64,000 nt of DNA, taken from a virus. Taxonomy: Duplodnaviria; Caudoviricetes. Location: positions 64,001 through 128,000 of IMG/VR virus record IMGVR_UViG_2731957577_000001; one strand, given 5' to 3'. Under the pieces are notes generated by a model. It saw only the letters and a program-made list of their open reading frames with translations, was not told where the DNA came from and did not search any database. Positions 6,145 through 56,155 of the stretch are shown piece by piece. Every line of letters begins with the position of its first letter. Position 1 is the stretch's first letter. Made by a program: the position numbers and the translations under genes.

Positions 6145-6195
6145 TAATGTGCATTGCATCGAGGTGACTATATACGACGTGGAGGCAAAGGAGCA

Positions 6196-8400
6196 ATGAG
6201 TGTACAGCTACGTGGTTTCCATAGGAAACTCTTTCAGACTCGATATGCTCAAAAGAGCCTGGATAAAGAAAGGTACATTGTACCGGGCGCCGATGTTGTG
6301 ACGTTGATTCGGGATGGGAAGTACCCGGTGCGTGAGACCGCCACCGTTACCCGTGTAGACGGCGAGACCGTTCACATGATCCTCACCAGCGGCGATATGG
6401 TAGGCCAAGAATTCAGCCAGAACATCGCTCATGTGGATGCGCTGGTGGAAACAGAATGGGAGCATGCATCGGAGCGCGTTTCAACCGCTGTGGCCGGGGT
6501 AGAGAAACCCGAAGTCCGCAAGTCCCATCAGAAGAAGTTCCATCATGCCATATCAAACTTTTTATTGATCCCAGCCGGCCGCATCCTCTCTGGCGCCGGA
6601 GATGACTCCTTCGTCACTCTGTTCAACTGCTATGTGACGGCAATCAAGCCACCAAAAGGCCAAGAACGGTATGGTCGCGACAGCCGTCAAGCGATCTTTC
6701 ACACGATGGGCTTCATCACGGAAATCATGGCGCGCGGTGGCGGGAATGGAACCTGTCTATCGGTTCTGCGACCGAAGTATGCGACGTTGTCTCAAACCAA
6801 GGGCAAGTCAGCGGGCGCGGTGCATACCGGCAACATGATCAGCTCCCTCACAGACTGGGTGGAGCAAGCCAACCGTCGTGGGGCCCAGATGCTGACCTTG
6901 CACGACTGGCACCCCGATGTATTCTATACCGCCGATGAAAACGACTCTCTCTATAATGAGGACTTCATTGGTGCCAAGAATAAGCCAGGCTTCATGGAAG
7001 GCAACAATTCCTCCGTTTTGGTGTCCGATGCCTTTATGCATGCGGTCGAACATGATTTGAATTGGGATCTTGTATTTCCGGACACCACGCATCCCGCCTA
7101 CAACCTTGAGTGGGATGGAGACCTCAACAAATGGAAAGCCAAGGGCTATCCGGTCAAAGTCTATCGCACGATCCGCGCGCGAGACATGTGGAAGAAGATC
7201 ATCCACTGCAATTGGCGTTCCGCCGAACCCGGCATCATCTTCATTGACACTTGCAATCGGATGCACAATGGCTGGTACCTCGGCACGATTATGGCCACGA
7301 ACCCATGCGGCGAGCAGCCGATTCTCGATGGCTCGACCTGCAACTTGGGCGCCATCAACTGGGGTCGCATGATTAAGCCGGTTGGAGAAGACGAGCTGGG
7401 AACCATCTATGACGTCGATTGGGATCTGCTGAAAAAGACCGTATGGGCAGGTGTCCGGTTCCTGGATAACGTCATTGACGTCAGCTTTTATTGGGACAAG
7501 GACCTTGAGCGTTGGCAAAAGGGGGAACGCCGTGTCGGCCTTGGCGGCATGGGCATCGCAGACTTCCTCATTGCCATGCGGAAGCGGTATGGCTCCAAAG
7601 AAGGCAACGAACTCATCGAGAAGGTCATGCGGTTCATTCGTGACGAGGCATACCGTTGCTCGATTGAATTGGCCAAGGAGAAAGGGCCATTCCCGTTCTT
7701 TGATCGCGACAAGTATCTGGAGAGTGGCTTCGTCAAGACCCTCCCCGAAGACATCCAGCAAGCGATCTATGAGCATGGCATTCGCAATTTGACCTTGCTG
7801 ACCTTTGCGCCGACCGGTACGACTGGCAGTGTCACGCCGTCCCTGCTCGATCCCGAAGGATCCGTGTCCACGGGTTGCGAACCCCACTTCGCCATGAAAT
7901 ATCACCGGCTTTCGCGGGTGGGTTCGACCATTCAATATGCAGGTGTCGCAAAAACATGGATAGATGAACATCCAGGACAGGAGCTTCCAGAGTGGTTTGT
8001 GGGTGCAATGGATCTCACCCCGGAAGAACACGTGGGTGTCCAAGCCGCGCTCCAGAAGTACGTCGACAGCTCCATTTCTAAGACCGTCAACTGTCCGGCC
8101 GATTACACGGAAGAACAAGTGGCCGAGGTCTACATGCTGTTATACAAGTCCGGCTGCAAAGGCGGGACCATCTATCGGGACGGTTCCCGTTATGAACAGA
8201 TCCTCAGCCTCACGGATGAAGAGGAAGCACCGGAGACGGCGGAAGAAAAGGCCGGGGAGACCAATGAGATGCCGGCGGTTCAAGACAAATATGCCAATTG
8301 GGAGTGCGTCGGTTGCGGCAGCAAATCCTTCGTACTTGTTGAGAATTGCCCGCAATGCACGGAGTGTGGTCTACAAGTGTGTTCCATTGGAGGACATTGA
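6196..8400 (+). CDS. nrdJ: Class II (adenosylcobalamin-dependent) ribonucleotide reductase
   Basis: 'PAGRIL', 'LFNCYV', 'RRGAQM', 'AEPGIIF', catalytic 'TNPCGEQ', 'CNLGAIN', 'APTGT', 'SISKTVN', 'KGGTIYRDGSR'; C-terminal Zn ribbon; no R2 subunit nearby. Confidence 0.92.
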   Translation: MSVQLRGFHRKLFQTRYAQKSLDKERYIVPGADVVTLIRDGKYPVRETATVTRVDGETVHMILTSGDMVGQEFSQNIAHVDALVETEWEHASERVSTAVAGVEKPEVRKSHQKKFHHAISNFLLIPAGRILSGAGDDSFVTLFNCYVTAIKPPKGQERYGRDSRQAIFHTMGFITEIMARGGGNGTCLSVLRPKYATLSQTKGKSAGAVHTGNMISSLTDWVEQANRRGAQMLTLHDWHPDVFYTADENDSLYNEDFIGAKNKPGFMEGNNSSVLVSDAFMHAVEHDLNWDLVFPDTTHPAYNLEWDGDLNKWKAKGYPVKVYRTIRARDMWKKIIHCNWRSAEPGIIFIDTCNRMHNGWYLGTIMATNPCGEQPILDGSTCNLGAINWGRMIKPVGEDELGTIYDVDWDLLKKTVWAGVRFLDNVIDVSFYWDKDLERWQKGERRVGLGGMGIADFLIAMRKRYGSKEGNELIEKVMRFIRDEAYRCSIELAKEKGPFPFFDRDKYLESGFVKTLPEDIQQAIYEHGIRNLTLLTFAPTGTTGSVTPSLLDPEGSVSTGCEPHFAMKYHRLSRVGSTIQYAGVAKTWIDEHPGQELPEWFVGAMDLTPEEHVGVQAALQKYVDSSISKTVNCPADYTEEQVAEVYMLLYKSGCKGGTIYRDGSRYEQILSLTDEEEAPETAEEKAGETNEMPAVQDKYANWECVGCGSKSFVLVENCPQCTECGLQVCSIGGH

Positions 8401-15730: not shown

Positions 15731-16051
15731 ATGAGCATGGTATTCGTCGATGTCGGTTTCAGCAACTTTATGGACGCGAGCAAGATCATTACGATCAGCC
15801 GGCCGGATTCGAGCCCGATCCGCCGGTTAGTCGGCCACGCCAAGGACAACAATCGGTACATCGACCTGACGCAAGGGAAGAAGACCCGTTCGATCATCGT
15901 GAGTGCCGGCGAACAAGGTCTGGTTGTCACCGCTTCTGCGGTCCAGACTTCCACGATTATCGGGCGGATTCGCAAGGCGTTCGAAGACTTGTTTGTCTCC
16001 CGCTTGGATCCCGCTGGCTTGGCGGTGATTGGAGAAGGTGGGTCCGAGTAA
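15731..16051 (+). CDS. remA: RemA (DUF370) extracellular-matrix regulator homologue
   Basis: 'VGFSN...SKII.I..PDSSPIRRL...AK.....IDLTQGKKTRSII......SAVQ..TI..R' follows the B. subtilis RemA pattern. Confidence 0.85.
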   Translation: MSMVFVDVGFSNFMDASKIITISRPDSSPIRRLVGHAKDNNRYIDLTQGKKTRSIIVSAGEQGLVVTASAVQTSTIIGRIRKAFEDLFVSRLDPAGLAVIGEGGSE

Positions 16052-16076
16052 TCCCCAACAAAGGAGCGATGGACGC

Positions 16077-19000
16077 ATGTGCAACCTGGTTCACCTGCAC
16101 GTTCACTCCGAGTTTAGTGAGTTGGACGGGCTCTCCAAGGTGCAAGACCTGGTGGCGCGTGCGAAAGAGATCGGGAGTACCGCCCTGGCCCTAACAGATC
16201 ATGGCGTCATGGGTGGTATTCCCGATTTTATCACCGCATGCGAACAAGCAGGAATCAAACCCATCCCGGGCGTCGAAGCGTATATGACGCGCAACCGGCT
16301 GCTCAAGGGCGAGTTTCTCAAGGAACGCCGGCTGGAGTTGTGCGAGAAATACAAGATCAAGGAGAAGGTCCTCAAGACCTTTATCCGCACCATCGAAAAG
16401 CAGCCGGCCAGCTTCATGGATGAAGCGACGGAACTACTCAAGGACTATCTCATGGCTCCGCCATCGGGCGACCTCTTTCATCTGACGTCGGGCGAGCTAT
16501 CCAAAGACGACGTTCTGAAAGAATTCCATCGGGAGGTCTATGACTATCTCTCGTATGACAACTATCACATCGTCCTGCTGGCGATGAACAATCAAGGGTT
16601 GGAGGATTTGTATGCCATCATCAGCGACGCTCATCTTCATGGATTCTATAGCGATCCTCGCACTGATCTTGCTTTTATTCGCGATCATGGGCTCGGGAAG
16701 AATCTCATTGCGACTTCGGCGTGCCTCGGCTCTTGGTTCGCTCGGCTGTGCCTTGCTGGGCTTATTGATGACGCTGTTGCTTTTATAGAAGAGTGCAAGG
16801 AGACGTTTCATGCGTTTTACCTGGAGAAACAAGCGACCCATCTGCCAGAGCAGATTCAGCTCAACCAGATCATCGACGATTTAGCGGCGCGGACAAACAC
16901 ACCGAAGATCATCACAACCGATGCGCATTATGCCCGCCAAGAGGACATCGACACGCATGACATCCTCATCTCGGTCAACTTCGGCAAGTGCGTCTTGGAT
17001 CCAGATCGCCTCCGTTACGCACCGGAATTCTGGATGAAATCCGAAGAGGAAGTGCGCAGCATTTGCGACGATGAGGAAGCCATTCTCAATACGAAGCGCA
17101 TTGCCGAGATGGTCAATGTCGCGCTTCCGAAGGAGCCGCTATTTCCAAAGTTCATTGTCGAAGAGGGAGACAGCCCGGAAGAGATTTTACGCAAGACAGC
17201 CTGGGATGCGCTGTTCCACTACGTCATCAAGAAGCCAGTGGACCTCGAGCGCTACTGTCAGCAGCTGGCCTATGAACTTGATGTCATTACAAGTCTTGGC
17301 TTTGCCGACTACTTTCTTGTGGTTTCGGACTACATACGCTGGGCGAAACAAAATGGGTATGAAGTCGGGCCTGGACGCGGGTCGGCCGCGGGTTCTCTGG
17401 TCGCATTCATGCTCGACATTACGACACTTGACCCCATCAAAAACAACCTGATGTTCGAGCGGTTCTTGAACCCCGAAAGAGCGGGGTATCCGGACATAGA
17501 TGCAGATTTCAGCTATGAGGCCGCCAAAGCGGTTCAACAGTATCTTAAAGACAAGTATGGCCAGGATCGGGTTGCACAGATTGGCACCTACGGCACCTTC
17601 GCCGCGCGGAAGGTCTGTCGTGCAGTGGGGAAGGCCCTTGGGTATAGCGATCAGGATCAGGACAAGTTTGCCAAGGCCATTCCGGCCAGACCCAACATCA
17701 CCCTCGAGGAAGCCTACAACGAAGAGCCGTTGGTCCAGGCCTACGCTCGCCAGCATCCTGACTGGTGGAACGCCATGAAGAAACTCGAAGGACACATCAG
17801 TCATCATGGTGTGCATGCTGGAGGCGTCGTCCTTTCTCCAGTCCCGTTAACGAAAGTGGTACCGCTTCGTCTGGATAGCGAAGGCCTTGCGACCACGCAA
17901 TACGATATGGAGTGGATTGAGAAGTTCCTGGTCAAGTTCGACATCTTGAAACTCGATACGCTGGATCTCATCAAGTACACCATGCAATACGCGGGCATCT
18001 ATGGGAAAGTCGATCTGAATGAAATTGATCTCAATGACCCGAAGGTGTACGAGGAGATCTACAACAAGCTGAATTTGGCCGGCATCTTTCAGTGCGAGTC
18101 GAAACTTTACCATGACATCATCTCCGCGATGAAGCCGAACTGCTTTGAGGATATCTCGGTCATCGTGGCGCTCGGCCGCCCAGGACCATTGGACCTCATC
18201 CCGGACTACATCGATCGGAAGTGGGGCCGAAAGAAAGTCGAGTACCCATTGCCTGAACTGGAGCCGATTCTCAAAGACACCTATGGAGTCTGGGTGTATC
18301 AAGAACAAATGATGCAGGCCAGCGTCATTCTCGGCGGACTCACACGCGGTCAGTCCGACATGATCCGAAAGGGTGTCGCCAAGAAAAAGCATGACCTCAT
18401 GCACAAGTGGATCGACCTGATGATCTACGGGTCTGAGCGGTACAAAGAGATGCGCCGCGAACACAATGCCATCGTCAATGCGATGAAAGCACGCGGGGAA
18501 GAGGTCCCGAAAGAGATGATGGACAAATACGATCCAGACCTGGATAAGGTTCCGTATGTGGAAGGTGCCATCAACCGGGGTTTTGATGAAGCCACCTTGC
18601 TCAAGATCAAAGAGGACTGGATCAAGTTCGGTAACTACTGCTTCAACCGCGCACACTCGGCTGCATACGCCAAGTTGTCGGTTCAAACGGCATGGCTCAA
18701 GACGTACTATCCTGTCGAGTTCATGGCGGCACTCCTGACCATTGCTGGTGACAAGAAGGCCAAGGATGGCACGCCAAAGACGGTCCTGTATATGCAGGAA
18801 TGCGAGAAGATGGGCATCAAGATTCTGCCGCCGGATATCAATGAATCCAACGCATCTTGGACACCCGTTGTCCATCCGGAAACGTACCAGAATCACCTCA
18901 AGGTCCACGTGGATCTGGGAACGAAGCCGGAAGAAGTGCAACTCAAGCCCGATGCCATTCGCTTTGGTCTGGGCGCCATTGCAGGGATCTCCAAAGAATC

Positions 19001-19547
19001 GGTCGATGAGATCATCAAATATCGTCCGTATACCTCGGTCGATGATGTCGTCGAACGGGTCAGCAGCCGCAAGATCAACAAGAGCAAGATTGTGGCTTTG
19101 ATCAAATCGGGCGCCTTTGACTCGATCAACCCAAACCGAAATCTCTTATGGCGCAATTACATCAAGAGTCGCGGGGAGGACTACGAGGCGATTCCAGCCC
19201 GCACCACCAAGAAAGACATCATGAGCTATGAGCGGGAGTATCTTGGCACCCTCATTACCGTACAGACCCGCTGGGACACGATTCCCAACGGGAAGGAAGA
19301 CGTACAGATCACGGGCTATGTCCTGAAGGTTGAGCCCTTTACGGCCAAGAAAACCGGTAAAGAACATTGCCGAGTCCTCGTGGAGACGCAAGAGGACGAG
19401 CGAAATGTCCTCGTATTCGGGACCAAATGGCAGCAACATAAAGGCCGCTTGGCACCCGGGCTGAAGGTCATTATCAAAGGCAAGAAGTCTGGCGAGGACC
19501 TTTTGGCAGATTCCATTCACTATGTCATGGCTGGGGTGAGCGCATGA
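16077..19547 (+). CDS. dnaE: DNA polymerase III alpha subunit
   Basis: PHP 'HLHVHSEFS.LDG', 'TDHG'; 'GPGRGSAAGS', 'FERFLNPER..YPDIDADF', 'KFDIL', 'FNRAHSAAY'. Confidence 0.95.
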   Translation: MCNLVHLHVHSEFSELDGLSKVQDLVARAKEIGSTALALTDHGVMGGIPDFITACEQAGIKPIPGVEAYMTRNRLLKGEFLKERRLELCEKYKIKEKVLKTFIRTIEKQPASFMDEATELLKDYLMAPPSGDLFHLTSGELSKDDVLKEFHREVYDYLSYDNYHIVLLAMNNQGLEDLYAIISDAHLHGFYSDPRTDLAFIRDHGLGKNLIATSACLGSWFARLCLAGLIDDAVAFIEECKETFHAFYLEKQATHLPEQIQLNQIIDDLAARTNTPKIITTDAHYARQEDIDTHDILISVNFGKCVLDPDRLRYAPEFWMKSEEEVRSICDDEEAILNTKRIAEMVNVALPKEPLFPKFIVEEGDSPEEILRKTAWDALFHYVIKKPVDLERYCQQLAYELDVITSLGFADYFLVVSDYIRWAKQNGYEVGPGRGSAAGSLVAFMLDITTLDPIKNNLMFERFLNPERAGYPDIDADFSYEAAKAVQQYLKDKYGQDRVAQIGTYGTFAARKVCRAVGKALGYSDQDQDKFAKAIPARPNITLEEAYNEEPLVQAYARQHPDWWNAMKKLEGHISHHGVHAGGVVLSPVPLTKVVPLRLDSEGLATTQYDMEWIEKFLVKFDILKLDTLDLIKYTMQYAGIYGKVDLNEIDLNDPKVYEEIYNKLNLAGIFQCESKLYHDIISAMKPNCFEDISVIVALGRPGPLDLIPDYIDRKWGRKKVEYPLPELEPILKDTYGVWVYQEQMMQASVILGGLTRGQSDMIRKGVAKKKHDLMHKWIDLMIYGSERYKEMRREHNAIVNAMKARGEEVPKEMMDKYDPDLDKVPYVEGAINRGFDEATLLKIKEDWIKFGNYCFNRAHSAAYAKLSVQTAWLKTYYPVEFMAALLTIAGDKKAKDGTPKTVLYMQECEKMGIKILPPDINESNASWTPVVHPETYQNHLKVHVDLGTKPEEVQLKPDAIRFGLGAIAGISKESVDEIIKYRPYTSVDDVVERVSSRKINKSKIVALIKSGAFDSINPNRNLLWRNYIKSRGEDYEAIPARTTKKDIMSYEREYLGTLITVQTRWDTIPNGKEDVQITGYVLKVEPFTAKKTGKEHCRVLVETQEDERNVLVFGTKWQQHKGRLAPGLKVIIKGKKSGEDLLADSIHYVMAGVSA

Positions 19548-25931: not shown

Positions 25932-25986
25932 TTGTCGAACCCCCATGATCGACGTATAATCAGATCATCAATCGAACACATGTTCG
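25932..25986 (+). promoter_or_regulatory. SigA promoter with LexA/DinR (SOS) box
   Basis: TTGTCG-17bp-TATAAT (25932-25960); CGAACACATGTTCG (25973-25986) fits CGAAC-N4-GTTCG. Confidence 0.8.
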
Positions 25987-26230: not shown

Positions 26231-26893
26231 ATGTGCGGACGCTTCACTCAAGCCTTTGAGAACTGGGGAGACGTCTTGAGAACCTTCGGGGTGGTGGACG
26301 ATGGATTCCGCGTGCCGCCCAGATACAACATTGCTCCCTCTCAAGACGTTCCCATCATTATCTCGGATGGGCAAGCCAGACGTATTGGACAGGTCCAATG
26401 GGGGCTGATCCATCCATGGTCTCAGTCATCCAGAAGTCGCATCCGTCCGATCAACACTCGGGCGGAGACACTGTTGGCCAATCGGTGGTTTCGATCCTTG
26501 GTTCCCAAAAAGAGATGCATCGTACCCGTGGACTCTTTCTACGAGTGGCGCCGAAACACCAAACAGCCCTTGCGCATCCAGCTCGAGCGCCGGCCCGTAT
26601 TTGCGCTGGCAGGTATTTATGACGTTTGGCACAGCAAAGACGGCCAAAAGGTCAGTTCCTTTGCCATTGTGACCTGTTCCCCCAATGTTTTTATGCTCGG
26701 GATCCATGACCGCATGCCCGTGATCCTAGATGAAGATGGCGTCAACTTGTGGCTGGATCGTTCCGTGACCGACCCGGAAGTCGTAACCTCCGTCCTCACC
26801 CCCACCACGGAACCTATGAAGGCTTATCCGGTCCACCCGAAAGTCGGAAATGTACGAAATGACGATCCTTCGTGCATCGAACCGTATGAGTGA
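26231..26893 (+). CDS. SOS response-associated peptidase (SRAP/HMCES abasic-site protein)
   Basis: 'MCGRF', 'RYNIAPSQ', 'WGL', 'NTRAET', 'FYEW', 'IHDRMPVIL'. Confidence 0.92.
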   Translation: MCGRFTQAFENWGDVLRTFGVVDDGFRVPPRYNIAPSQDVPIIISDGQARRIGQVQWGLIHPWSQSSRSRIRPINTRAETLLANRWFRSLVPKKRCIVPVDSFYEWRRNTKQPLRIQLERRPVFALAGIYDVWHSKDGQKVSSFAIVTCSPNVFMLGIHDRMPVILDEDGVNLWLDRSVTDPEVVTSVLTPTTEPMKAYPVHPKVGNVRNDDPSCIEPYE

Positions 26894-28260: not shown

Positions 28261-28560
28261 CTAACCGATATGCCTTTGGAATACATATTGGATCTGAATC
28301 CCAATGGACTTGATCCCCTGAATCAATATGGGATCATGGGATAGACAACTCGGAGACACACAAACAATCGTCGATACGGTTCCATCCTGAATATCATTCA
28401 AGAGAGCTTGGAATCCTGGACAATCTAGAGTATCACCAGAAGCCCCACAGTCGACGTACTCTTGATAAACAGCGCGTCCGACATGGTCCCGACACGCCTT
28501 CAGTTGGCGTTCGATCTCTGCCATATCCATGAGATCGGTCCGGGCATAGATACCAATCAA
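28261..28560 (-). CDS. Serine recombinase N-terminal domain only (degenerate)
   Basis: 'IYART', 'Q...C', 'Y.D.GASG....PGFQ.LL'; catalytic YxRxS is altered and there is no DNA-binding domain. Confidence 0.6.
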   Translation of the reverse strand: MIGIYARTDLMDMAEIERQLKACRDHVGRAVYQEYVDCGASGDTLDCPGFQALLNDIQDGTVSTIVCVSPSCLSHDPILIQGIKSIGIQIQYVFQRHIG

Positions 28561-28578: not shown

Positions 28579-29274
28579 TTAGGCTGGCACAGGAGCCTGG
28601 AGCATCCCGGCTTGGATGAATGCATTCTGCAAATCTACCATCATTTCCTGCATGGCCGGCCAGCCGTCCTGCTTCTTTCGCAACACATAGCTGGGGTGAT
28701 ACGTATGGAGCATCGGGATGCCATTGAACTCTCTCCAGATCCCACGCTCTCGGCTGATCTTCAACCGGCTCCCTTCGGATCGCATGGCCCACATGGCCGG
28801 ATTCCCCAGGGTCACTATGACCTTTGGCTGAACAATCGCGATCTCATTAAACAAGTGCGCGTTGGAACAGCACCGTATCTCATCCATCGTGGGTTGGCGA
28901 TTGTTCACATCCGTCCGGCACTTGACGACGTTCGTGATATACAACCGCCGCCGGTCCACGCCAAGTCTCAACAACGCCCAGGTCAGGAGCTGCCCCGCCG
29001 CGCCGATCAGCGGTAGATCATAGGCCTCCTCTTGTGCGGCCGGCGCCTCCCCAATCAACATGACATCCGCTTGCCAACTCCCTGTACCACGGACTGGGCC
29101 CTGACATCCCAACGCTAACGGACAACGCCGGCATTCACGGATATTAGTGTCCATATAAAATTGCTCATCCACCAGGTGCTGAGTATATTGGTTGACATAC
29201 TGGATCTCCTGGAGCGGATATCCCGCGTTGACCAATTGACGTTCAATCTCAGACCAGTCACGGACGTCCGCCAA
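28579..29274 (-). CDS. Uracil-DNA glycosylase, family 4 (Fe-S)
   Basis: 'C..C.L', 'GEAP', 'TNVVKCR...NR.P..DE...C', 'YHPS'. Confidence 0.9.
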   Translation of the reverse strand: MADVRDWSEIERQLVNAGYPLQEIQYVNQYTQHLVDEQFYMDTNIRECRRCPLALGCQGPVRGTGSWQADVMLIGEAPAAQEEAYDLPLIGAAGQLLTWALLRLGVDRRRLYITNVVKCRTDVNNRQPTMDEIRCCSNAHLFNEIAIVQPKVIVTLGNPAMWAMRSEGSRLKISRERGIWREFNGIPMLHTYHPSYVLRKKQDGWPAMQEMMVDLQNAFIQAGMLQAPVPA

Positions 29275-29332
29275 GATCCTCCACCTCCATGTTTAACTTG
29301 TCAGCAACTTGTGTCAGACTTATAATGAGTGT

Positions 29333-29473
29333 TGAAGACGGCAATCATAAAAAAAGGCCCCACCAGCAGCCACTGGTGAGGCCTGGCGGGCCGACAAGGC
29401 CTACCCATTGCGCCGAGAGCAAAGCAATCTGTCAGCGGATGGTCGACTGGCCCGAGTCGACCATCATTCATTT
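29333..29473 (+). ncRNA. Putative antisense (antitoxin) RNA A
   Basis: TTGTCA-17bp-TATAAT (29298-29326); overlaps 3' end of locus A mRNA; ends at hairpin 29439-29464 plus CATTCATTT; ends approximate. Confidence 0.55.
29349..29384 (-). terminator. Terminator of locus A mRNA
   Basis: AGGCCTCACCAG/CTGGTGGGGCCT stem followed by a T-tract on the minus strand. Confidence 0.75.
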
Positions 29474-29559
29474 ATGATGAACTCAAAGCTGACAGCCAGG
29501 AGCCAGAGGTGTCCAGCTATAGGTACTGGGACGACTCTGATCCGAAGCACTCGCTTCAT
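29464..29559 (-). CDS. 31-aa peptide A (MKRVLRIRVVPVPIAGHLWLLAVSFEFIINE), candidate type I toxin
   Basis: AGGAGGTG RBS sequestered by upstream CCACCTCCT; extended -10 TGCTATACT (29689-29697); similar to peptide B. Confidence 0.65.
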   Translation of the reverse strand: MKRVLRIRVVPVPIAGHLWLLAVSFEFIINE

Positions 29560-29733
29560 CGGCACCACCTCCTCGGCTCACACCTAACGCAACAGGTAGA
29601 GCCGAGTCGGCCCACATCTGTGTGAGCCATAGGAGGTGGCTGGGCCTACAACGGATAGATTCATCTTACGATGAGTCCCGCCACTTCAAGTATAGCATCT
29701 ATATAACCCCATTTCCTAGAAGGAATTCTCAAT

Positions 29734-29979
29734 ATGAGCCGGATTGTCGAACGACCCATTCAATCCATCCAAACCAATGACCGAGGCGAACCGGTGGCAT
29801 GGCTGGATCGCGGTGTGACCCACCGAGTTGTTGAGATTCTCGATGCCTGGAGAGAGGCTGGAAATTGGTGGGAAGACGAACCGAATCGAGCCATGTATCG
29901 TGTGCTTACATCGGAGAACTACGTGTATGATCTCGAAGAATCCGAAGGCAAATGGAAGGTCTATAAAGTGTGGGATTAG
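29734..29979 (+). CDS. DUF6504-like small protein
   Basis: 'V.EILD.WRE.G.WW', 'YDL.....W....VWD'. Confidence 0.7.
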   Translation: MSRIVERPIQSIQTNDRGEPVAWLDRGVTHRVVEILDAWREAGNWWEDEPNRAMYRVLTSENYVYDLEESEGKWKVYKVWD

Positions 29980-30133
29980 GCCGCCCATTTGATTTCTATT
30001 CTAGATCATGGGCGTGCTATACTAGAAATGACCCATCTCTATAGATGGCCAACGTCTTGTTGTTGGCTGACACCCCCTCGGCTGCTGTGGGACGGTGCGG
30101 CGCCTTGTCGGAGGGCCGAGGGGGTGAGAGTTG

Positions 30134-30226
30134 ATGCGGTGGTTTCGCATTCGCGTGACGCTTTTACCGACCGGCCATGCGTTTCTGCCTTGGATCGTTC
30201 GTGTAGAGCTTACCATAAAGAAGTGA
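30134..30226 (+). CDS. 30-aa peptide B (MRWFRIRVTLLPTGHAFLPWIVRVELTIKK), candidate type I toxin
   Basis: GAGGGGGTG RBS inside a perfect 12-bp stem with 30071-30082; extended -10 TGCTATACT (30015-30023); similar to peptide A. Confidence 0.65.
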   Translation: MRWFRIRVTLLPTGHAFLPWIVRVELTIKK

Positions 30227-30331
30227 CGACCGGTTCTCAGCCAACCGGTCGTCGTTAGCGACTCACCATCAACTCCGACAAGCGTTGCACCGTCCGTCGG
30301 GACCCTGCCAGTCAGCCTCTGGCGGGGTCTC
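30217..30331 (-). ncRNA. Putative antisense (antitoxin) RNA B
   Basis: Minus-strand TTGTTA-18bp-TATAAT (30367-30338); ends at hairpin 30226-30252 plus CACTTCTTT; ends approximate. Confidence 0.55.
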
Positions 30332-30452
30332 ATTCTTATTATAGTCAATGTGCGTCTCATGTAACAACATGCTGAAACGAATCCAAAGGTCAATGAACTT
30401 ACTCTCCCAGAGGTCGACCTCTCTAAAAAGCATGATTCATAAAATCATGATT

Positions 30453-31369: not shown

Positions 31370-31996
31370 GTGCTCGACCACAAAGACACGGGCAAGTATA
31401 CATACTGGATGAAGCACTTTGAGAACGGAGAACTGATCGAGGTCCCTGAGTCGAAGATAGAAAACATCTCCCTTGACACGCTCGACAACGGACCGGTCAT
31501 CCCCTTGCATCAGGGTGGATTCGCACAGATCCCTGCCTATTGGCTCTACTTCTGGTGTCCCTTTCTCTCGGTTCACGCTCAGTCTATATTTACGCACTTG
31601 ATCGCCCATACATACATAGACAAGAACTGGTGCCAGATCAAGCGTGAAACGCTCGCTGCAGAATGCAACATGAGCCTGTCCGCCTTCAACAAACACTTCG
31701 AGCAACTTGAACGATACAAGCTGGCTTGGCGCATCGAGGTGAGAACCCCGGATGGAAGCAACCTGCCGAACATTTACATCACGAGGAGGCAAATGCCCCT
31801 CATCCCGCAGGAACTTTACGATCAATTATCGGACCGGCTCAAGGACATGCATGATCAGTACATCGAGCGCATGGCCAAAAGCGGCATGCTGTACCTGGAT
31901 GTGGAGTATGAACGTCCACTTCCCGAACCCAGCCCACCGCCGAAAAGACGCGGCAGACCAAAAGGCTCAAAGAACAAACCCAAGGCGTCTGAATAG
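31370..31996 (+). CDS. wHTH replication initiator-like protein
   Basis: 'IFTHLI.H......CQIKRETLAAECNMS......HF.QL....L...E.R..DG.NLPNIY.I' resembles HTH_36-type Rep N-termini; AAAGGAG RBS; own terminator. Confidence 0.6.
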   Translation: MLDHKDTGKYTYWMKHFENGELIEVPESKIENISLDTLDNGPVIPLHQGGFAQIPAYWLYFWCPFLSVHAQSIFTHLIAHTYIDKNWCQIKRETLAAECNMSLSAFNKHFEQLERYKLAWRIEVRTPDGSNLPNIYITRRQMPLIPQELYDQLSDRLKDMHDQYIERMAKSGMLYLDVEYERPLPEPSPPPKRRGRPKGSKNKPKASE

Positions 31997-34612: not shown

Positions 34613-35971
34613 TTATGCGTTCGTTTCGCCTTCAACCGCTTCAGATTCGCCCGAACCGTTCTCCTGCGCCTGTTCCGCCGCGGCAGCTACATCCTCGGCA
34701 AACGGGTCTACTTCGGCTTCCGGTGGATTGAAGTCCTCGATCACGACACTATCCTTCATGTACGTGGTACGGATCGGGGTCACCAAGTCCAGATCCGACG
34801 AGCTGGTACCGGACACCCGAATCACAAACGGCGTCTTCGGAGACGTGAAGCAAAGCACAACCTGTTCCTCCGGAGAGATGGCGCCAAGCATGTCGAGGAG
34901 ATACGCAACGTTAAAGCTCGTTCCGATGTCCTTGCCCTCGGAAGACAGAGGCCGAATGTCTTCCTGGAACTTGCCATACTGGGTCGGATCGGACAGGAAC
35001 CGAACTTGGCCGTTCTTCGCGTCGACCAAGATATGAGCTGTTGTCACGCCCACATCATTCGCATACAAGGTCGCGCGACTCAGCAACTCCCTCAGCTCGC
35101 CGGCGCGAAACTGAATCTTAGTGCTGAAGTCAGGTGGAATGATCCGGTCGGTATCCGGGTATTGATCGTGCAACGTGCGAGTATAGATCGTGGTGTCGTC
35201 CAACTCATACAACACATAGCTCTTATCGAACCGGATTGTCACCATATCAACGTCCTTCAGGTGTTTCACTACTTCGTTAATGGAATCGGCCGGAATCACA
35301 TGGTTGCCATCCTCCACCTCACCGGTCAGTTGATACGACTGCTGCGCAAGACGGTGAGAATCGCATCCAATGGTCCGGAATATGCCGTCCTTGACGATGT
35401 GGTTCACGCCCGTCAGAACCGGCCGCGTCTCCGATTTGGATGTCGCATAGACAGTGCGGCGATACATCGTTGCCAGAACCGCGGACGGAACGGAGAACGA
35501 TAGCTGTCCATTGACCGACGGCAGCTTGGGATACTGGTCAAGGTGCAGACCCGCCAGAGACATCTTGGCGCCCTTGAACTTGATGAGCGTCTGAAGTTTG
35601 TTGAACTCGATGGTCACATGCTTTCCAGTAACACGGTTCACCAGGTCGACGAACTTACGACCCGGGAAGATAAGGCCGCCACCCTCTCCCTGAACGCGGA
35701 ACGACTCCATATCCGTGATGACGGTCTTCGTATAGAAGTTGCTGTTTCCGCCGATCAGCGTGATCTTGTTGTCCTCAACCTGAAAGTAAATGCCCTGGAG
35801 CGCCTGGGAGGGCGAGTTCTTTGACACCGAGTTTCCGACCTTACGAACCGCCTCACGTAACACTTCGCTCTTGATGGTCAGTGTGAACACCTGATTGGTC
35901 GTAAAGACCTGCTTCTCGGCCTCCTTCTCCAGTTCAACCGCCTTCTTCAGGTCAGCTTCTGCAAGCGCCAT
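34613..35971 (-). CDS. dnaN: DNA polymerase III beta sliding clamp
   Basis: 'L.GIY', 'YP.LP', 'ETRPVLTGV', 'DSHRLA', 'YPD..RIIP', 'FNV.YLLD', 'P.R'; acidic extensions. Confidence 0.92.
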   Translation of the reverse strand: MALAEADLKKAVELEKEAEKQVFTTNQVFTLTIKSEVLREAVRKVGNSVSKNSPSQALQGIYFQVEDNKITLIGGNSNFYTKTVITDMESFRVQGEGGGLIFPGRKFVDLVNRVTGKHVTIEFNKLQTLIKFKGAKMSLAGLHLDQYPKLPSVNGQLSFSVPSAVLATMYRRTVYATSKSETRPVLTGVNHIVKDGIFRTIGCDSHRLAQQSYQLTGEVEDGNHVIPADSINEVVKHLKDVDMVTIRFDKSYVLYELDDTTIYTRTLHDQYPDTDRIIPPDFSTKIQFRAGELRELLSRATLYANDVGVTTAHILVDAKNGQVRFLSDPTQYGKFQEDIRPLSSEGKDIGTSFNVAYLLDMLGAISPEEQVVLCFTSPKTPFVIRVSGTSSSDLDLVTPIRTTYMKDSVVIEDFNPPEAEVDPFAEDVAAAAEQAQENGSGESEAVEGETNA

Positions 35972-45543: not shown

Positions 45544-46935
45544 TCAGCCTGCAATCAAATGACGCTGGTTGTGCTTGTACGTATCCACCCGCGCCTTGAT
45601 CGACTCATAGCTCACCTCAAAGAGTTCGGATGCTTGCCGGATGTATATGTCCAGTTCAACCGGATCTTCAACCTGGCTCAGAACCTCGATGACTTTTCGC
45701 ATCCGTTCTTGTTGCAATTGTGCAATCTCGGATTGATGATAAAAGATCTGGTCATAGGTCTCACGATGAATCCGTTCCAACCGCCACTGACTTATGGTAC
45801 GCCGATGCTTCTCCATCCAGCGAAGCAGCTGATCAGGTTCATCTTCGAAGTTGTCACAAAGATCACAGGGATCTAGACCCTCTGGCATTGGGATGATAAA
45901 CGTCTGGATACCGTGAGACGTCAGCATCTTGGCATCCCGCTCGATGGCCTTCATGCCGGCTTCATCCCCATCTCGCATCGAGACGACCCGCTTCGCGCCG
46001 GCGCGCACCAAGAGTTTCGTCTGGGCTTCGGTGAGCGCGGTTCCCATCGTGCAGACGGCATTCTGGACACCATATTTGTGGAGCTTGATGACATCCGTCC
46101 AGCCCTCGACAATCACAGCTTCGCCCCACTGGCGAATGAACTCTTTTGCGATGTGCATGCCAAAGAGGTGATTGCCCTTGTCAAACTCCGGATACGGATG
46201 GTCCTTGTAATACGGGTCATCCGGCTTGATAGAGATTCGGTCCAGATACTTCACAATCGGCATCTTGCCTTCGGCCTGCAGTTTCTTGTTCGCCTCGGCC
46301 AACACGTTGGGAGGAAGCATCGTCCGGCCGGTAAAGCTGATGATGTTCCCGTGAAAGTCAAACAGGGTAAAGACGATGCGATCCTTGGTATTCCGAAAAT
46401 CATAGTCCACGTCATCACCAAAGCCGAGCTTCCAAAGCAAAATGTCTTGCATCGTGAACCCGCGCTGATAGAGGTATGCCAGAGCCTCTTTGTTGTTCAT
46501 GAGGTTCTGTTGAAACCGCTCAGCAGCTCGCTCACAATACTCAATCCACTTGGCGCGAAGATCCTGTTTTCGCTTGGCTTCAGGATCCAGAACCGGCAGT
46601 GGCTCACCTAGGAAGTTGGCCAACCACTCAATCGCTTCGCCAAGATTGCATCGTAAAATGCCCTTCAAGAAACCATACACATCACAAGACTGAACGGTGC
46701 TATGGTTTCTGGAACCAGCGCCACAGGCATAACAGCCAAAGGTCTGTTTGTCCGTCCGAACATGGAAACTCGGATTCTTTTCTTCATGAAACGGACAACA
46801 CGCCACATAGTCGCGGCCCATCTTCTTCAGCGGCACAAACTGAGAGATGACCGCCACAATGTCGGCCTTCGACTTCAGATACTCCTTGAATTCATCTGGA
46901 TAGTACGGCACATCGACCCTCCTCTCCTTGATCAA
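45544..46935 (-). CDS. dnaG: DnaG-type DNA primase
   Basis: CHC2 'CPFHEEKNPSF...C..CG', 'F.GR', 'KYL', TOPRIM 'VEG..DV', 'DGDEAG', 'DP.D'. Confidence 0.92.
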   Translation of the reverse strand: MIKERRVDVPYYPDEFKEYLKSKADIVAVISQFVPLKKMGRDYVACCPFHEEKNPSFHVRTDKQTFGCYACGAGSRNHSTVQSCDVYGFLKGILRCNLGEAIEWLANFLGEPLPVLDPEAKRKQDLRAKWIEYCERAAERFQQNLMNNKEALAYLYQRGFTMQDILLWKLGFGDDVDYDFRNTKDRIVFTLFDFHGNIISFTGRTMLPPNVLAEANKKLQAEGKMPIVKYLDRISIKPDDPYYKDHPYPEFDKGNHLFGMHIAKEFIRQWGEAVIVEGWTDVIKLHKYGVQNAVCTMGTALTEAQTKLLVRAGAKRVVSMRDGDEAGMKAIERDAKMLTSHGIQTFIIPMPEGLDPCDLCDNFEDEPDQLLRWMEKHRRTISQWRLERIHRETYDQIFYHQSEIAQLQQERMRKVIEVLSQVEDPVELDIYIRQASELFEVSYESIKARVDTYKHNQRHLIAG

Positions 46936-50717: not shown

Positions 50718-51704
50718 TCATCCCTCGAGGTTTAGGATGTACCGAACCAGGTCGGTGATTTGCTCGCTCATGTCTTTCCTAAACTCGCGGACGCTCAGCG
50801 CGAGAGCTTGTGGCTTCTGTTCGCAATATCGATCCAGTGTAGCCAGTATATTCTGGTGCATCTTACGGACAACGTCCACGTCGATGGCGAATTTATTTTC
50901 CGCCTGCTCGCTCCGCAAGATCTGCAGTTCCTGGCGAAGCATCTCCAGTTCTTCGCGCATCGATTCCGCCGCTTGAATCTGGCGGTTGCGGTCGTCAATC
51001 ACCTCTTGAACCAGCTTCAGATTCTGAACGGTCGAGAGCTGATCGGACAAAGAACGGAGATAGGACATCGCCTGATGGATCGATTCCGTCAAGACCGCCA
51101 TGATCTCACGGTCATCTTTCTTGAGAATCTCTTGTGCGGTCGGAATCGACTCCATCTGTTCCAGAAACTCGCGGACTCGCTCATCCAGATTGACTGGCCG
51201 CTCTGTTACACCCGAAGTCTGGCCAAAGACGGTTTCATCCGCCAACGCCGTCACAGGCGCTGTAGTCTCCACTTCCTTGGCCGGTTCCGGCGTAGGTTGT
51301 GCAGCTTGAACCGGTACAGACGATTCTTTGGGAACAGACTCTGTCTTTGGCTCCAGTGTCACCAAATCTTTTTGAGGTCGAACGCCGAGCTTTGCAAACA
51401 AATCCGCCAGAGCAGCGTCATCTTCAGGACCAGAAATCTTGATCGATTTCTTCACAAATGGGCTGTTCTCAGGTAGCTTATAGATCTTGCGGTTGTACTG
51501 ACCGCGGCGATCCAACTGAATCAATTCTCCAGCCTCGACCAGCTTCTTGAGATGATAGTCCATCGTCGGCCCTTGAACCCCAAACATGTCTGCCAGTTCC
51601 GTGGACGCAATCTCAATGGTTCCATCCGGAGATTGCTCAATTAAATCAGCCATGTATTGTAAAACTTTATGTCGGTCAACTTTTCGAGCCGTCTGTGCGC
51701 TCAT
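50718..51704 (-). CDS. Winged-HTH DNA-binding protein with C-terminal coiled coil
   Basis: 'STELADMFGVQGPTMDYHLKKLVEAGEL' HTH plus wing. Confidence 0.7.
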   Translation of the reverse strand: MSAQTARKVDRHKVLQYMADLIEQSPDGTIEIASTELADMFGVQGPTMDYHLKKLVEAGELIQLDRRGQYNRKIYKLPENSPFVKKSIKISGPEDDAALADLFAKLGVRPQKDLVTLEPKTESVPKESSVPVQAAQPTPEPAKEVETTAPVTALADETVFGQTSGVTERPVNLDERVREFLEQMESIPTAQEILKKDDREIMAVLTESIHQAMSYLRSLSDQLSTVQNLKLVQEVIDDRNRQIQAAESMREELEMLRQELQILRSEQAENKFAIDVDVVRKMHQNILATLDRYCEQKPQALALSVREFRKDMSEQITDLVRYILNLEG

Positions 51705-51796: not shown

Positions 51797-53746
51797 TCAA
51801 GATAGCTTCACTTTTTGCAGAATTTCTTCGGGAAGTTCGTCCAAGAACCGAGATGGCTTGACAGAAATCAGGCCGCGAGGCCCTTGCCGCATCGTAGTGT
51901 ATGTCAAGAAAAGACGTTTTTCTGCTCGGGTAATGCCGACATACGCAAGCCGACGTTCTTCCTCCAACTCATGCGCTTCCTTGCTACGCCAAGACGGAAA
52001 GACGCCTTCATTCATGCCGATGATAAAGACCACCGGAAACTCCAGGCCTTTACTGGAGTGCATGGTCATCAGCCGTACCGCGTTTTGGCCCTTTTCCTCC
52101 ACATCCGTGAGCAGCGAGATTTCCTGCAGAAAGTCTCCGAGTGTCTTGTCTGGATGGTCTTCTTGATACTGATGTACCAGTCGAAGAAACTCCTCCAGGT
52201 TATCCAGCTTGTCCTGGGCTTCTTTATTCTTGGTGTTCTGCCACATGGCCACGTAGCCCGTCTTATCTAAGACATACTTCACGAACTTCTCGAGATCGCG
52301 AGTCTGGTGGGCGCGCAGATCTTCCAGCAAAGACAAGAACACTTTTACCTTACCGTTGGTCGCTTTCTTGATCTGTTTGATGTCGTCAATGCTCCGCAAC
52401 GCCCGATGAATGCTGACTTTGTAGTCATTGGCGTACTTAATGATATGTTCTTCAGACGACTTCCCTATGCCGCGCGCGGGCTTATTCAGAATGCGAAGCA
52501 TCGCGGCATCATCCTTGGGGTTATGGATCACGCGAAGATACGAAACCGTGTCCTTGATCTCCTCCCGTTCAAAGAACGCAGACCCACCCACGACCTTATA
52601 CGGAATGAAGTTCGGCACAAAGAGTTGCTCTAGGGCCAGAGATTGTGCATTGTTCCGGTAGAGCACGGCGAAGTCTGACCACGCATACCCTTCTTCCATG
52701 ACCATCTTCTTGATCTTTGAAGCCACGTATGCCGATTCCTTGCGCTCATCGGACAGCTCGATGACCTGGATGGCATGGCCGCCTTTCTTGTCCGTGAAGA
52801 GGTTCTTCTCTTTCTGGTTTGGATTGTGTTTCATGATCATGTTTCCGGCATGGACAATGACCTCGGTGGACCGGTAGTTCTGGTCCAGATAAATCGTCGT
52901 GCAAGGGAAGAACTTGCGCTCGAAGGACAGAATGTTCGAGATGTCGGATCCGCGGAAACCATAGATGGACTGATAGTCATCGCCCACGACAAATAGATTG
53001 TTCTGTGGCCAAGCCAGGTACGACAGAAGCATGAACTGCGCATGATTGACGTCCTGATACTCGTCCGCAAAGACGAACTTAAAACGGTTCTGCCAATACT
53101 CGCGGGCACCTGGAAAGTCGTTCAGGATCTGAACGGTGTTCATGATAAGGTCGCCAAAATCCATCGCATTGGCTTCCTTCATGAACTCTTGATACTTGGC
53201 ATAGACCTGGGCCATGACCTCATATGTGGGCGAATCCGCGAGATTATACAGACACCAATCGGGAGTATGCAGAAGGTTCTTGGCTTGATCAATGTAATGC
53301 AATGCCAGACCTTCTTTATAGTCCTCCTCAATGCCCATCATCTTGTAGATGCGTTCAAGAAGTTTGAGCTGGTCGCTAGTGTCATAGATGACAAAATTGC
53401 GTTCATAGCCGAGAAGATGTGCGTATTTGCGGAGAATGCGGACACAAAGGGAGTGAAAGGTCCCCATCCAGATTTGCGCCGCCTTCTCTTCACCGATCAC
53501 CTTCGTGATGCGCTCTTTCATCTCGCGCGCGGCCTTGTTGGTGAAGGTGGCGACAAACATCTCACTGGGCTGAACGCCATGATTCGCAATCATGTTGGCG
53601 ATGCGAACGGTCATCGTGCGCGTCTTACCCGAACCGGCGCCAGCCAACACGAGGACGGGCCCATAAATCGTTTCGGCCGCCTGCCGTTGATTCGGATTGA
53701 GTTCGGACAGCATCTGCTCAATTGGGGTGGTTGTTATTGTGGTCAT
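51797..53746 (-). CDS. pcrA: PcrA/UvrD SF1 helicase
   Basis: 'LNPNQ', 'AGAGSGKT', 'TFTNKAA', 'DEYQD', 'VGDDYQSIYGFRG', 'NYRS', 'H.SKGLEF', 'EERRLAYVGITRA'. Confidence 0.95.
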   Translation of the reverse strand: MTTITTTPIEQMLSELNPNQRQAAETIYGPVLVLAGAGSGKTRTMTVRIANMIANHGVQPSEMFVATFTNKAAREMKERITKVIGEEKAAQIWMGTFHSLCVRILRKYAHLLGYERNFVIYDTSDQLKLLERIYKMMGIEEDYKEGLALHYIDQAKNLLHTPDWCLYNLADSPTYEVMAQVYAKYQEFMKEANAMDFGDLIMNTVQILNDFPGAREYWQNRFKFVFADEYQDVNHAQFMLLSYLAWPQNNLFVVGDDYQSIYGFRGSDISNILSFERKFFPCTTIYLDQNYRSTEVIVHAGNMIMKHNPNQKEKNLFTDKKGGHAIQVIELSDERKESAYVASKIKKMVMEEGYAWSDFAVLYRNNAQSLALEQLFVPNFIPYKVVGGSAFFEREEIKDTVSYLRVIHNPKDDAAMLRILNKPARGIGKSSEEHIIKYANDYKVSIHRALRSIDDIKQIKKATNGKVKVFLSLLEDLRAHQTRDLEKFVKYVLDKTGYVAMWQNTKNKEAQDKLDNLEEFLRLVHQYQEDHPDKTLGDFLQEISLLTDVEEKGQNAVRLMTMHSSKGLEFPVVFIIGMNEGVFPSWRSKEAHELEEERRLAYVGITRAEKRLFLTYTTMRQGPRGLISVKPSRFLDELPEEILQKVKLS

Positions 53747-56092: not shown

Positions 56093-56155
56093 CCATCGCA
56101 CCTCCAAAAAGATGAGGAGAACGTCTGTCCTCCTCATTGGGTCTCAGTCTGCTCT

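Follow-up and report, generated by a model that had tools for sequence, protein, structure and literature searches.

Two divergent loci with type I toxin-antitoxin-like architecture and a selected small peptide in the replication region of a caudovirus

The DNA analysed here, referred to below as the window, is a stretch of 64,000 nucleotides (nt), positions 64,001 to 128,000 of the IMG/VR virus record IMGVR_UViG_2731957577_000001 (Duplodnaviria; Caudoviricetes). Between positions 29298 and 30367 it carries two divergently oriented loci, A on the minus strand and B on the plus strand, each with a small open reading frame (ORF), a long leader in which the Shine-Dalgarno (SD) sequence is paired, a 3′ untranslated region (UTR) complementary to that leader, and a convergent promoter facing the 3′ end of the predicted mRNA. 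We propose, with a probability of roughly 0.6, that each locus is a self-contained module of type I toxin-antitoxin (TA)-like character, following the Gram-positive design in which the antisense RNA overlaps the mRNA 3′ end and belonging to a new family, with the peptide as candidate toxin and the predicted antisense RNA as its antitoxin. Type I systems are hard to find: their toxins are tiny, unannotated and poorly conserved.

At locus A, the toxin promoter was read from the sequence as an extended -10 element (TGCTATACT, 29689-29697, minus strand) with no recognisable -35; at the matching position in an A-type homologue from genome G066 stands TGGTATACT. The predicted mRNA (29346-29682) would be about 336 nt long, with a leader of 123 nt. 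An anti-SD hairpin (29565-29639), its arms read by eye at 29620-29639 and 29565-29583, pairs anti-SD and SD in a stem of 9 + 10 base pairs (bp) around a bulge, and its loop holds segments that pair with the 3′ UTR. ORF A (29464-29559; MKRVLRIRV..., MKRVLRIRVVPVPIAGHLWLLAVSFEFIINE), found in the small-ORF listing and with homologues in genomes G066 and G062, has 31 codons plus a stop. A hairpin at the stop codon (29438-29465, pattern scan) would on the plus strand be the terminator of the antisense RNA, with the tail ATTCATTTAT. It is followed by a 3′ UTR linker (29385-29437) that, checked base by base, pairs with the leader through segments of 7, 8, and 12 bp, the last including two G·U pairs, and then by an intrinsic terminator (29346-29384, hairpin 29384-29355; pattern scan) with a 13 bp stem and seven U residues. 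Folded alone, the leader has 12 of 12 SD-window bases paired, and in the full RNA the SD has an unpaired probability of 0.016. The duplex between leader and 3′ UTR is predicted at -64.3 kcal/mol, against -43.3 +/- 4.3 in shuffles (z -4.8), with 0 of 300 shuffles equalling it.

Locus B is laid out in the same way on the plus strand. Sequence reading gives the same extended -10 (TGCTATACT, 30015-30023), and TGnTAnAAT is found at the aligned position in four of four B-type homologues. The predicted mRNA (30030-30340) would be about 310 nt long, with a leader of 104 nt, in which the anti-SD hairpin joins CACCCCCTCGGC (30071-30082) to GCCGAGGGGGTG (30115-30126) by 12 perfect bp. ORF B (30134-30226; MRWFRIRV..., MRWFRIRVTLLPTGHAFLPWIVRVELTIKK), also from the small-ORF listing, has 30 codons from its ATG plus a stop; a TTG lies one codon 5′ of the ATG. 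Its stop-codon hairpin (30225-30253, pattern scan) is again a predicted antisense terminator, here on the minus strand, with the tail ACTTCTTTAT. The pairing segments of the 3′ UTR (30267-30295), also checked base by base, form three helices with the leader region, of 10, 9, and 9 bp and all perfect (30273-30282/30104-30113, 30287-30295/30090-30098, and 30267-30275/30128-30136); the third covers the ATG, while the other two hit the loop of the anti-SD hairpin. A terminator hairpin with a U-rich tail ends the unit (30299-30341, hairpin 30299-30331; pattern scan). The leader/3′ UTR duplex is predicted at -61.9 kcal/mol, against -39.0 +/- 3.8 in shuffles (z -6.0).

Opposite each 3′ end the pattern scan places a promoter resembling those read by sigma-A: TTGTCA-17-TATAAT for antisense A (29298-29326, plus strand, 11 of 12 consensus matches), and TTGTTA-18-TATAAT for antisense B (30367-30338, minus strand, 10 of 12). 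With the scanned terminators, the first would give an RNA of about 143 nt (29333-29475, plus strand) that can pair with the final ~130 nt of mRNA A, its last four codons among them; the second would give an RNA of about 116 nt (30331-30216, minus strand) that reaches across the 3′ UTR into the last 3-4 codons of ORF B. Predicted folding energies are -59.5 kcal/mol for antisense A (z -4.4) and -52.3 kcal/mol for antisense B (z -3.2). The consensus scan covered 1.7 kb around both loci and was compared with shuffled sequences: it found 5 promoter-like sites where the shuffles had 1.2 +/- 1.0, and 9 terminator-like sites where they had 1.2 +/- 1.4. These supply promoters and terminators for both convergent antisense RNAs and terminators for both sense RNAs.

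The antisense and coding functions share nucleotides at one point. In reverse complement, the U-tails of the antisense terminators give the final codons of the peptides (IKK, INE, DKD, SKDE), at 29464-29475 and 30216-30226 as well as in homologues. Since the U-tract is thus encoded by C-terminal Lys, Asp, and Asn codons, the peptide end and the antisense terminator would constrain each other.

Much of this layout had been described in an original prediction made from the letters alone. The extended -10 elements, the stems burying the SD, the ORFs of 30-31 codons and the stop-codon hairpins all lie where it had put them, by sequence reading and by the ORF list. Its pairings between 3′ and 5′ UTR were borne out base by base at both loci, including the one over the ATG of locus B, and the pattern scan recovered its terminal hairpins and convergent SigA promoters, with predicted antisense RNAs of ~116-143 nt. 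Folding, which it had proposed as a check, gives -167.7 kcal/mol (z -8.1 against shuffles) for the full-length locus A RNA and -146.7 kcal/mol (z -5.9) for that of locus B. It had also named a lack of conservation of ORF and structure in homologous loci as a finding that would speak against it; both are conserved, as described next.

Homologues were sought by DNA and by peptide profile. A search of relatives found full-length DNA homologues of locus B at four other loci, with 72-86% identity, one of them a third copy in the same genome on a different contig. Peptide profiles add loci beyond the reach of the DNA search: the A-type ones of G066 and G062, and those of a third subtype, C-type, in G027 and G031. 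Of 64 genomes of the order that were searched, 8 carry cassettes, 10 loci in all, and these genomes represent three genera of a single family; none turned up in 400-genome samples drawn from the class and the phylum outside Alicyclobacillaceae, so that in the genomes searched the cassette family is confined to Alicyclobacillaceae. A pattern search with the A-type peptide gave one match, in Alicyclobacillus fodiniaquatilis. By sequence comparison, the peptides of loci A and B fall into one family, as members of two diverged subtypes. This bears on the origin of the pair, which the original prediction had taken for a duplicated module: there is no DNA similarity between A and B, and each has nearer relatives elsewhere, in other genomes, so a recent tandem or inverted duplication was rejected in favour of two long-diverged subtypes.

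Other searches with family sequences gave little. Three family peptides had no match in Pfam or NCBIfam at E values up to 10, and no profile match was found to the known type I toxin families in those databases (Fst/Ldr, Hok/Gef, TxpA/BsrG, TisB, Ibs, ShoB, and others). A profile search of 1.84 billion representative proteins returned a single family member, without a name; among about 15 billion predicted proteins, too, the family is represented just once. Rfam had no match at gathering score anywhere in the window, and at E up to 10 only chance-level matches between 29200 and 30500 (ctRNA_pGA1, at 22.7 bits against a threshold of 45; abiF; Spot 42); no covariance model of an antitoxin RNA family (RatA, SR4/bsrG-type, Sok, Sib, RdlD, IstR, etc.) came near its gathering score. 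No locus was confirmed in a peptide-alignment search of viral contigs, blastn of the 1.2 kb region against phage and plasmid collections found no match, and a back-translated B-type pattern had 0 matches in genome, viral and metagenome collections that apparently hold no near relatives. Weak matches of the peptide hidden Markov model (HMM) in genomes from other families, G107, G081, G407, G072, G014, G034, G067, and G018 were set aside, as they lie within long ORFs, lack the architecture, or are at chance level.

Among the ten aligned peptides, a Gly-His pair in the middle and a Glu near the C-terminus are invariant, and in all of them the N-terminus is basic and the centre hydrophobic. No full copy has an interrupted reading frame. 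In the nine full loci the ORFs have 27-33 codons and the predicted mRNAs ~297-347 nt, within the range given for type I systems (mRNAs of 150-400 nt, fewer than 60 amino acids). Across the five B-type loci the ratio of nonsynonymous to synonymous substitution rates (dN/dS) is 0.09-0.40 over the full ORF and 0.09-0.30 over an 87 nt window; of the other frames, +1 has stops and +2 gives about 0.6-2. Variable columns fall at codon positions 1, 2, and 3 in the proportion 11/5/17, so that third-position changes dominate. The C-type pair has dN 0.016 and dS 0.20. This coding signature in the ORF frame is the reason for regarding the peptide as translated and under selection.

The RNA architecture is conserved as well. 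In all nine full loci a promoter whose -10 is extended or good precedes a leader of 93-123 nt; further downstream come a stop-codon hairpin, the 3′ UTR linker, and a hairpin at the 3′ end, and every locus has a strong SD with suitable spacing. With the leader folded alone, 9-12 of the 12 SD-window bases are paired in nine of nine full loci; in the full RNAs the SD has an unpaired probability of 0.02-0.45. The SD and anti-SD sequences themselves differ among the three subtypes (GGAGGUGG/CCACCUCC, GGGAGGUGG/CCACCUCCC, and GAGGGGGUG/CACCCCCUC), and in the B-type locus L009 an additional C in one arm of the anti-SD stem is matched by an additional G in the other. The leader/3′ UTR duplex is stronger than in dinucleotide shuffles in eight of the nine loci (z -2.5 to -6.0). 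The elements used to describe type I mRNAs (SD/anti-SD pairing, 5′ and 3′ stem-loops, and a 5′-3′ interaction; PMC8594479) are thus all present, the long-distance interaction being significant in those eight.

A defined structure was tested on the five B-type loci, comprising the anti-SD hairpin, three long-range helices (forming a pseudoknot), the stop hairpin, and the terminator. In it, 95.1% of cells are paired, against 33-51% when the partners are slid, and 6 pairs show compensatory changes, against 0-2. By element, the anti-SD hairpin has 93% of cells paired across the 5 loci; the stop-codon hairpin has two compensatory base pairs among homologues; the 3′ UTR segments have 90-100% of cells paired and one compensatory change from G-C to A-U; and the terminator has 98.5% paired and one compensatory pair. 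RNAalifold independently retained a long-range helix on the same loci. On the opposite strand, the antisense-facing terminator is kept in the homologues scanned (L008, L009, and L016), and a perfect convergent TATAAT is found in A, B, L008, G066, G062, and the C-type loci, with L008 retaining TTGTTG-18-TATAAT as a possible antisense promoter.

The assignment to type I rests on this combination: promoters and terminators for four transcripts in convergent geometry, well above the level of shuffles, a locked SD, a selected ORF, and a structure conserved across unrelated neighbourhoods. By sequence, the features match the type I descriptors together with the antisense arrangement, on the 3′ side and overlapping the ORF, of the Gram-positive families (PMC8594479). 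Of the original TA reading, SD sequestration, 5′-3′ closure, a predicted convergent antisense unit over the 3′ end, and a selected ORF stand; local duplication does not.

A working scheme for such a module can be drawn from these features. A weak promoter with only an extended -10 would produce an mRNA of ~310-340 nt for a peptide of 27-33 residues. As the long leader emerges, the upstream anti-SD would sequester the SD, as folding and covariation suggest. In the completed mRNA, the 3′ UTR between stop hairpin and terminator would fold back on the leader, its anti-SD loop included, and cover the start codon, closing the RNA into a compact and translationally inert form (a step with computational support in eight of the nine full loci). 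A convergent sigma-A promoter, the stronger of the two, would start transcription at the foot of the mRNA terminator and yield an antisense RNA of ~116-143 nt, ending at the stop-codon hairpin and perfectly complementary to the 3′ segment used in this closure. If bsrG/SR4 and txpA/RatA are a guide, the resulting duplex may be cut by RNase III, or the SD lock tightened, or both, keeping the peptide off as long as the module is present. Should the antisense supply stop, processing of the more stable mRNA could free the SD and so allow synthesis of the peptide, which would arrest or kill the cell. Because the SD would be hidden whichever partner wins, the 3′ UTR or the local anti-SD hairpin, activation would seem to need a processing step, as in hok and aapA1 (PMC6733600).

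The peptide itself is the least typical part. Given the 10-sequence alignment, AlphaFold2 predicts a two-stranded beta-hairpin (strands 2-15 and 18-30; mean predicted confidence, pLDDT, 82.9) with the invariant Gly-His at the turn. In this model both faces of the tip half are hydrophobic; in the base half, which is amphipathic, Arg lies opposite Glu. A Foldseek search of the Protein Data Bank (PDB) with the 31-residue model gave nothing below E = 5, and look-alikes in the ESM Atlas, with a best score of 0.84, were uninformative. Type I toxins are typically hydrophobic peptides with a transmembrane alpha-helix, SymE and RalR being exceptions (PMC6562991). The peptide described here would most likely act at the membrane, though not as a classical single transmembrane helix. 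A more specific version of the proposal, tentative and on balance doubtful, is that the toxin is a sequence-conserved cationic beta-hairpin, the first such type I family, which would act in another way (as a membrane beta-sheet oligomer or on a specific target) under a “shared-strand” lock, one segment of the 3′ UTR being contested by the antitoxin RNA and by the leader of the mRNA itself.

Several points weigh against a type I assignment. The uncharged or hydrophobic stretch of the peptide is only 15-17 residues long and includes 1-3 Pro plus the Gly-His, and for this reason it does not match the transmembrane helix expected of type I toxins; the uninterrupted hydrophobic helix of ~18-20 residues that is the hallmark of most of them is absent, with a beta-hairpin predicted instead. 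The invariant Gly, His, and Glu suggest a specific fold or partner rather than generic membrane disruption. Selection is relaxed in the A-type pair (dN/dS 0.66). The G066 locus is the exception to long-range pairing, its leader/3′ UTR duplex being not significant (z +0.6), and the covariation comes from only 5 related sequences, with the structure taken from one of them. The transcripts, sense and antisense, are predicted only, with ends inferred from consensus scans. In the clade of L009, L010, and L016 the convergent -10 exists only as an extended -10 recognized by eye (TGGTATAAC), about 35 nt further out, and the pattern scan called no promoter, sense or antisense, in L008, L009, or L016.

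Elsewhere the cassette neighbours include a GT2/GtrA glycosyltransferase, a peptide deformylase, an ABC permease, and UvrD with a Y-family polymerase. In the A-type copy of G062 (L042, G062:C1 ~51200-51300), the similarity to G066 starts precisely where the start codon used to be, ATG having become ATT; leader, SD, and toxin promoter are gone or replaced, while 3′ UTR, terminator, and antisense promoter are retained. By its sequence this copy is an orphan antitoxin or a decayed toxin. Two B-type leader remnants, L011 (G011:C1 ~3203325-3203397) and L012 (G029:C46 ~70843-70911), keep the anti-SD hairpin, the SD, and the first few codons, with an early stop after 8 codons; they lie between the ends of two convergent genes, and no full copy was found in that genus. 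Dead toxin genes with surviving regulatory parts are what would be expected of a harmful gene, although the cases are few.

Since a transmembrane helix is lacking, a non-toxic product must be taken seriously, although we consider it rather unlikely: a regulatory or structural micro-protein that might, for instance, bind a phage or host partner through its beta-hairpin, and whose level would be tuned by cis-antisense RNA and a structured leader, with no addiction or killing. The invariant Gly-His turn and Glu and the predicted beta-hairpin, unlike generic hydrophobic type I toxins, would suit such a role, and so would purifying selection on the ORF. A triple translational lock (anti-SD hairpin, 3′ UTR closure, and a strong antisense RNA), on the other hand, is typical of harmful products (PMC8594479); the cassette also behaves as a mobile and self-contained module, found in unrelated contexts and in several copies in one genome, and one copy has specifically lost its start codon and leader but kept its antisense promoter.

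The remaining explanations would deny the peptide a role of its own. The sense/antisense pairs might form a phage expression switch acting on neighbouring genes, with the ORF only a leader peptide. Locus A ends ~70 nt upstream of a co-oriented family-4 uracil-DNA glycosylase (UDG) gene (28579-29274, minus strand) with no obvious promoter of its own, which could be expressed by read-through, and between the loci lies the gene of a small DUF6504 protein (29734-29979, plus strand, 81 codons) for which no promoter was called. Homologous cassettes beside entirely different genes nevertheless keep the architecture and their own strong terminators, and the peptide is conserved to its C-terminus, which a leader peptide would not need; such a switch is accordingly improbable. 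Very improbable is that these are structured non-coding RNAs or bidirectional terminators in which the ORFs are incidental. The RNAs are indeed very strongly structured, and the below-threshold ctRNA_pGA1 match falls on a terminator hairpin, but the frame is open in every full copy, with dN/dS of 0.09-0.30 against stops or about 0.6-2 in other frames, a strong and well-spaced SD is found everywhere, and the peptide HMM finds copies that a DNA search misses. Bidirectional terminators with chance ORFs were rejected on this coding signature.

Within the window, both loci sit in a large phage-like module of replication and nucleotide metabolism, with genes for a DnaB-like helicase (1511-2755), the large subunit of ribonucleotide reductase (RNR; 6154-8400), a DnaE-type polymerase (16029-19547), a replication initiator (31370-31996), a sliding clamp (34613-35971), a primase (45544-46935), a helicase (51797-53746), and a thymidylate synthase-like protein (54566-56137). 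The initiator is the gene that the original prediction had called rep-like, and it does match a phage replication initiator. Beside the UDG gene, which lies just downstream of locus A, is a fragment of a serine-resolvase N-terminal domain (28261-28560, minus strand, 99 residues). The gene set resembles that of large SPbeta-like temperate phages, themselves carriers of type I systems.

Possible binding sites for the SOS repressor LexA were also noted. A perfect Bacillus-type LexA (Cheo) box, CGAACACATGTTCG, lies at 25973-25986, ~245 nt upstream of a gene for an SOS response-associated peptidase (SRAP; 26231-26893); no other site in the window matches perfectly, though with up to 1 mismatch there are 2 matches against 2.5 expected from shuffles. 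The window scan saw no LexA-like box at loci A and B. At the C-type locus of G027, a LexA/Cheo-like box (CAAACATATGTTCG, L051 1362-1375) overlaps the -35 of the toxin promoter, as one does in G031, and a second (AGAACATATGTTCG, L051 1833-1846) lies ahead of the Y-family polymerase operon, with UvrD on the other side. LexA-like matches with up to 2 mismatches in L051 number 4 against 2.6 expected, which is not above chance. The position of the first box suggests, by analogy with tisB, dinQ, and symE, that the C-type subtype may be under SOS control.

These would be the first candidate type I modules of the thermo-acidophilic Alicyclobacillaceae. The subtypes offer three naturally diverged variants of one RNA design that do not cross-pair, of possible use in dissecting or engineering orthogonal RNA locks. 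Two variants side by side near a replication module would fit a role in element maintenance, or in conflict between phages or between phage and host. If toxicity is borne out, the main source of novelty would be a peptide predicted to form a beta-hairpin and not a transmembrane helix, and a conserved Gly-His/Glu hairpin would widen the known folds of type I toxins.

Several groups of known systems can be compared with these loci. The tisB/IstR-1, dinQ/AgrB, and symE/SymR systems of E. coli have LexA boxes over their promoters (PMC6562991), and the C-type loci of G027 and G031 likewise carry a LexA-like box; they differ in having another antisense arrangement and no homology, and loci A and B are without the box. 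The hok/Sok system of plasmid R1 and aapA1/IsoA1 of Helicobacter pylori share 5′-3′ closure of the mRNA and local hairpins that hide the SD during transcription (PMC6733600, PMC8594479). Their antisense RNAs, however, map within or at the 5′ part of the mRNA, which becomes active once its 3′ end is trimmed; both families are also Gram-negative, with helical toxins and no sequence relationship to the loci described here.

By analogy, bsrG/SR4 and txpA/RatA are the closest working counterparts. Together with bsrE/SR5 they come from Bacillus subtilis prophages (SPbeta, P6, and skin), so that a Gram-positive host and a prophage-like location are shared, the latter being typical of B. subtilis type I systems (PMC6562991). 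They also have a sequestered SD and a convergent antisense RNA of ~100-200 nt over the 3′ end of the mRNA and the end of the ORF, as predicted here. Those antitoxins promote RNase III-dependent decay, and SR4 also tightens and extends the SD helix (PMC3834814, PMC6562991, PMC8594479). There is no sequence or Rfam relationship between these systems and loci A and B, and their toxins are helical transmembrane peptides, whereas here a beta-hairpin with Pro and a Gly-His is predicted. A further difference lies in the target of the antisense RNA, which at loci A and B would be the very stretch of 3′ UTR through which the mRNA pairs with its own leader and start codon.

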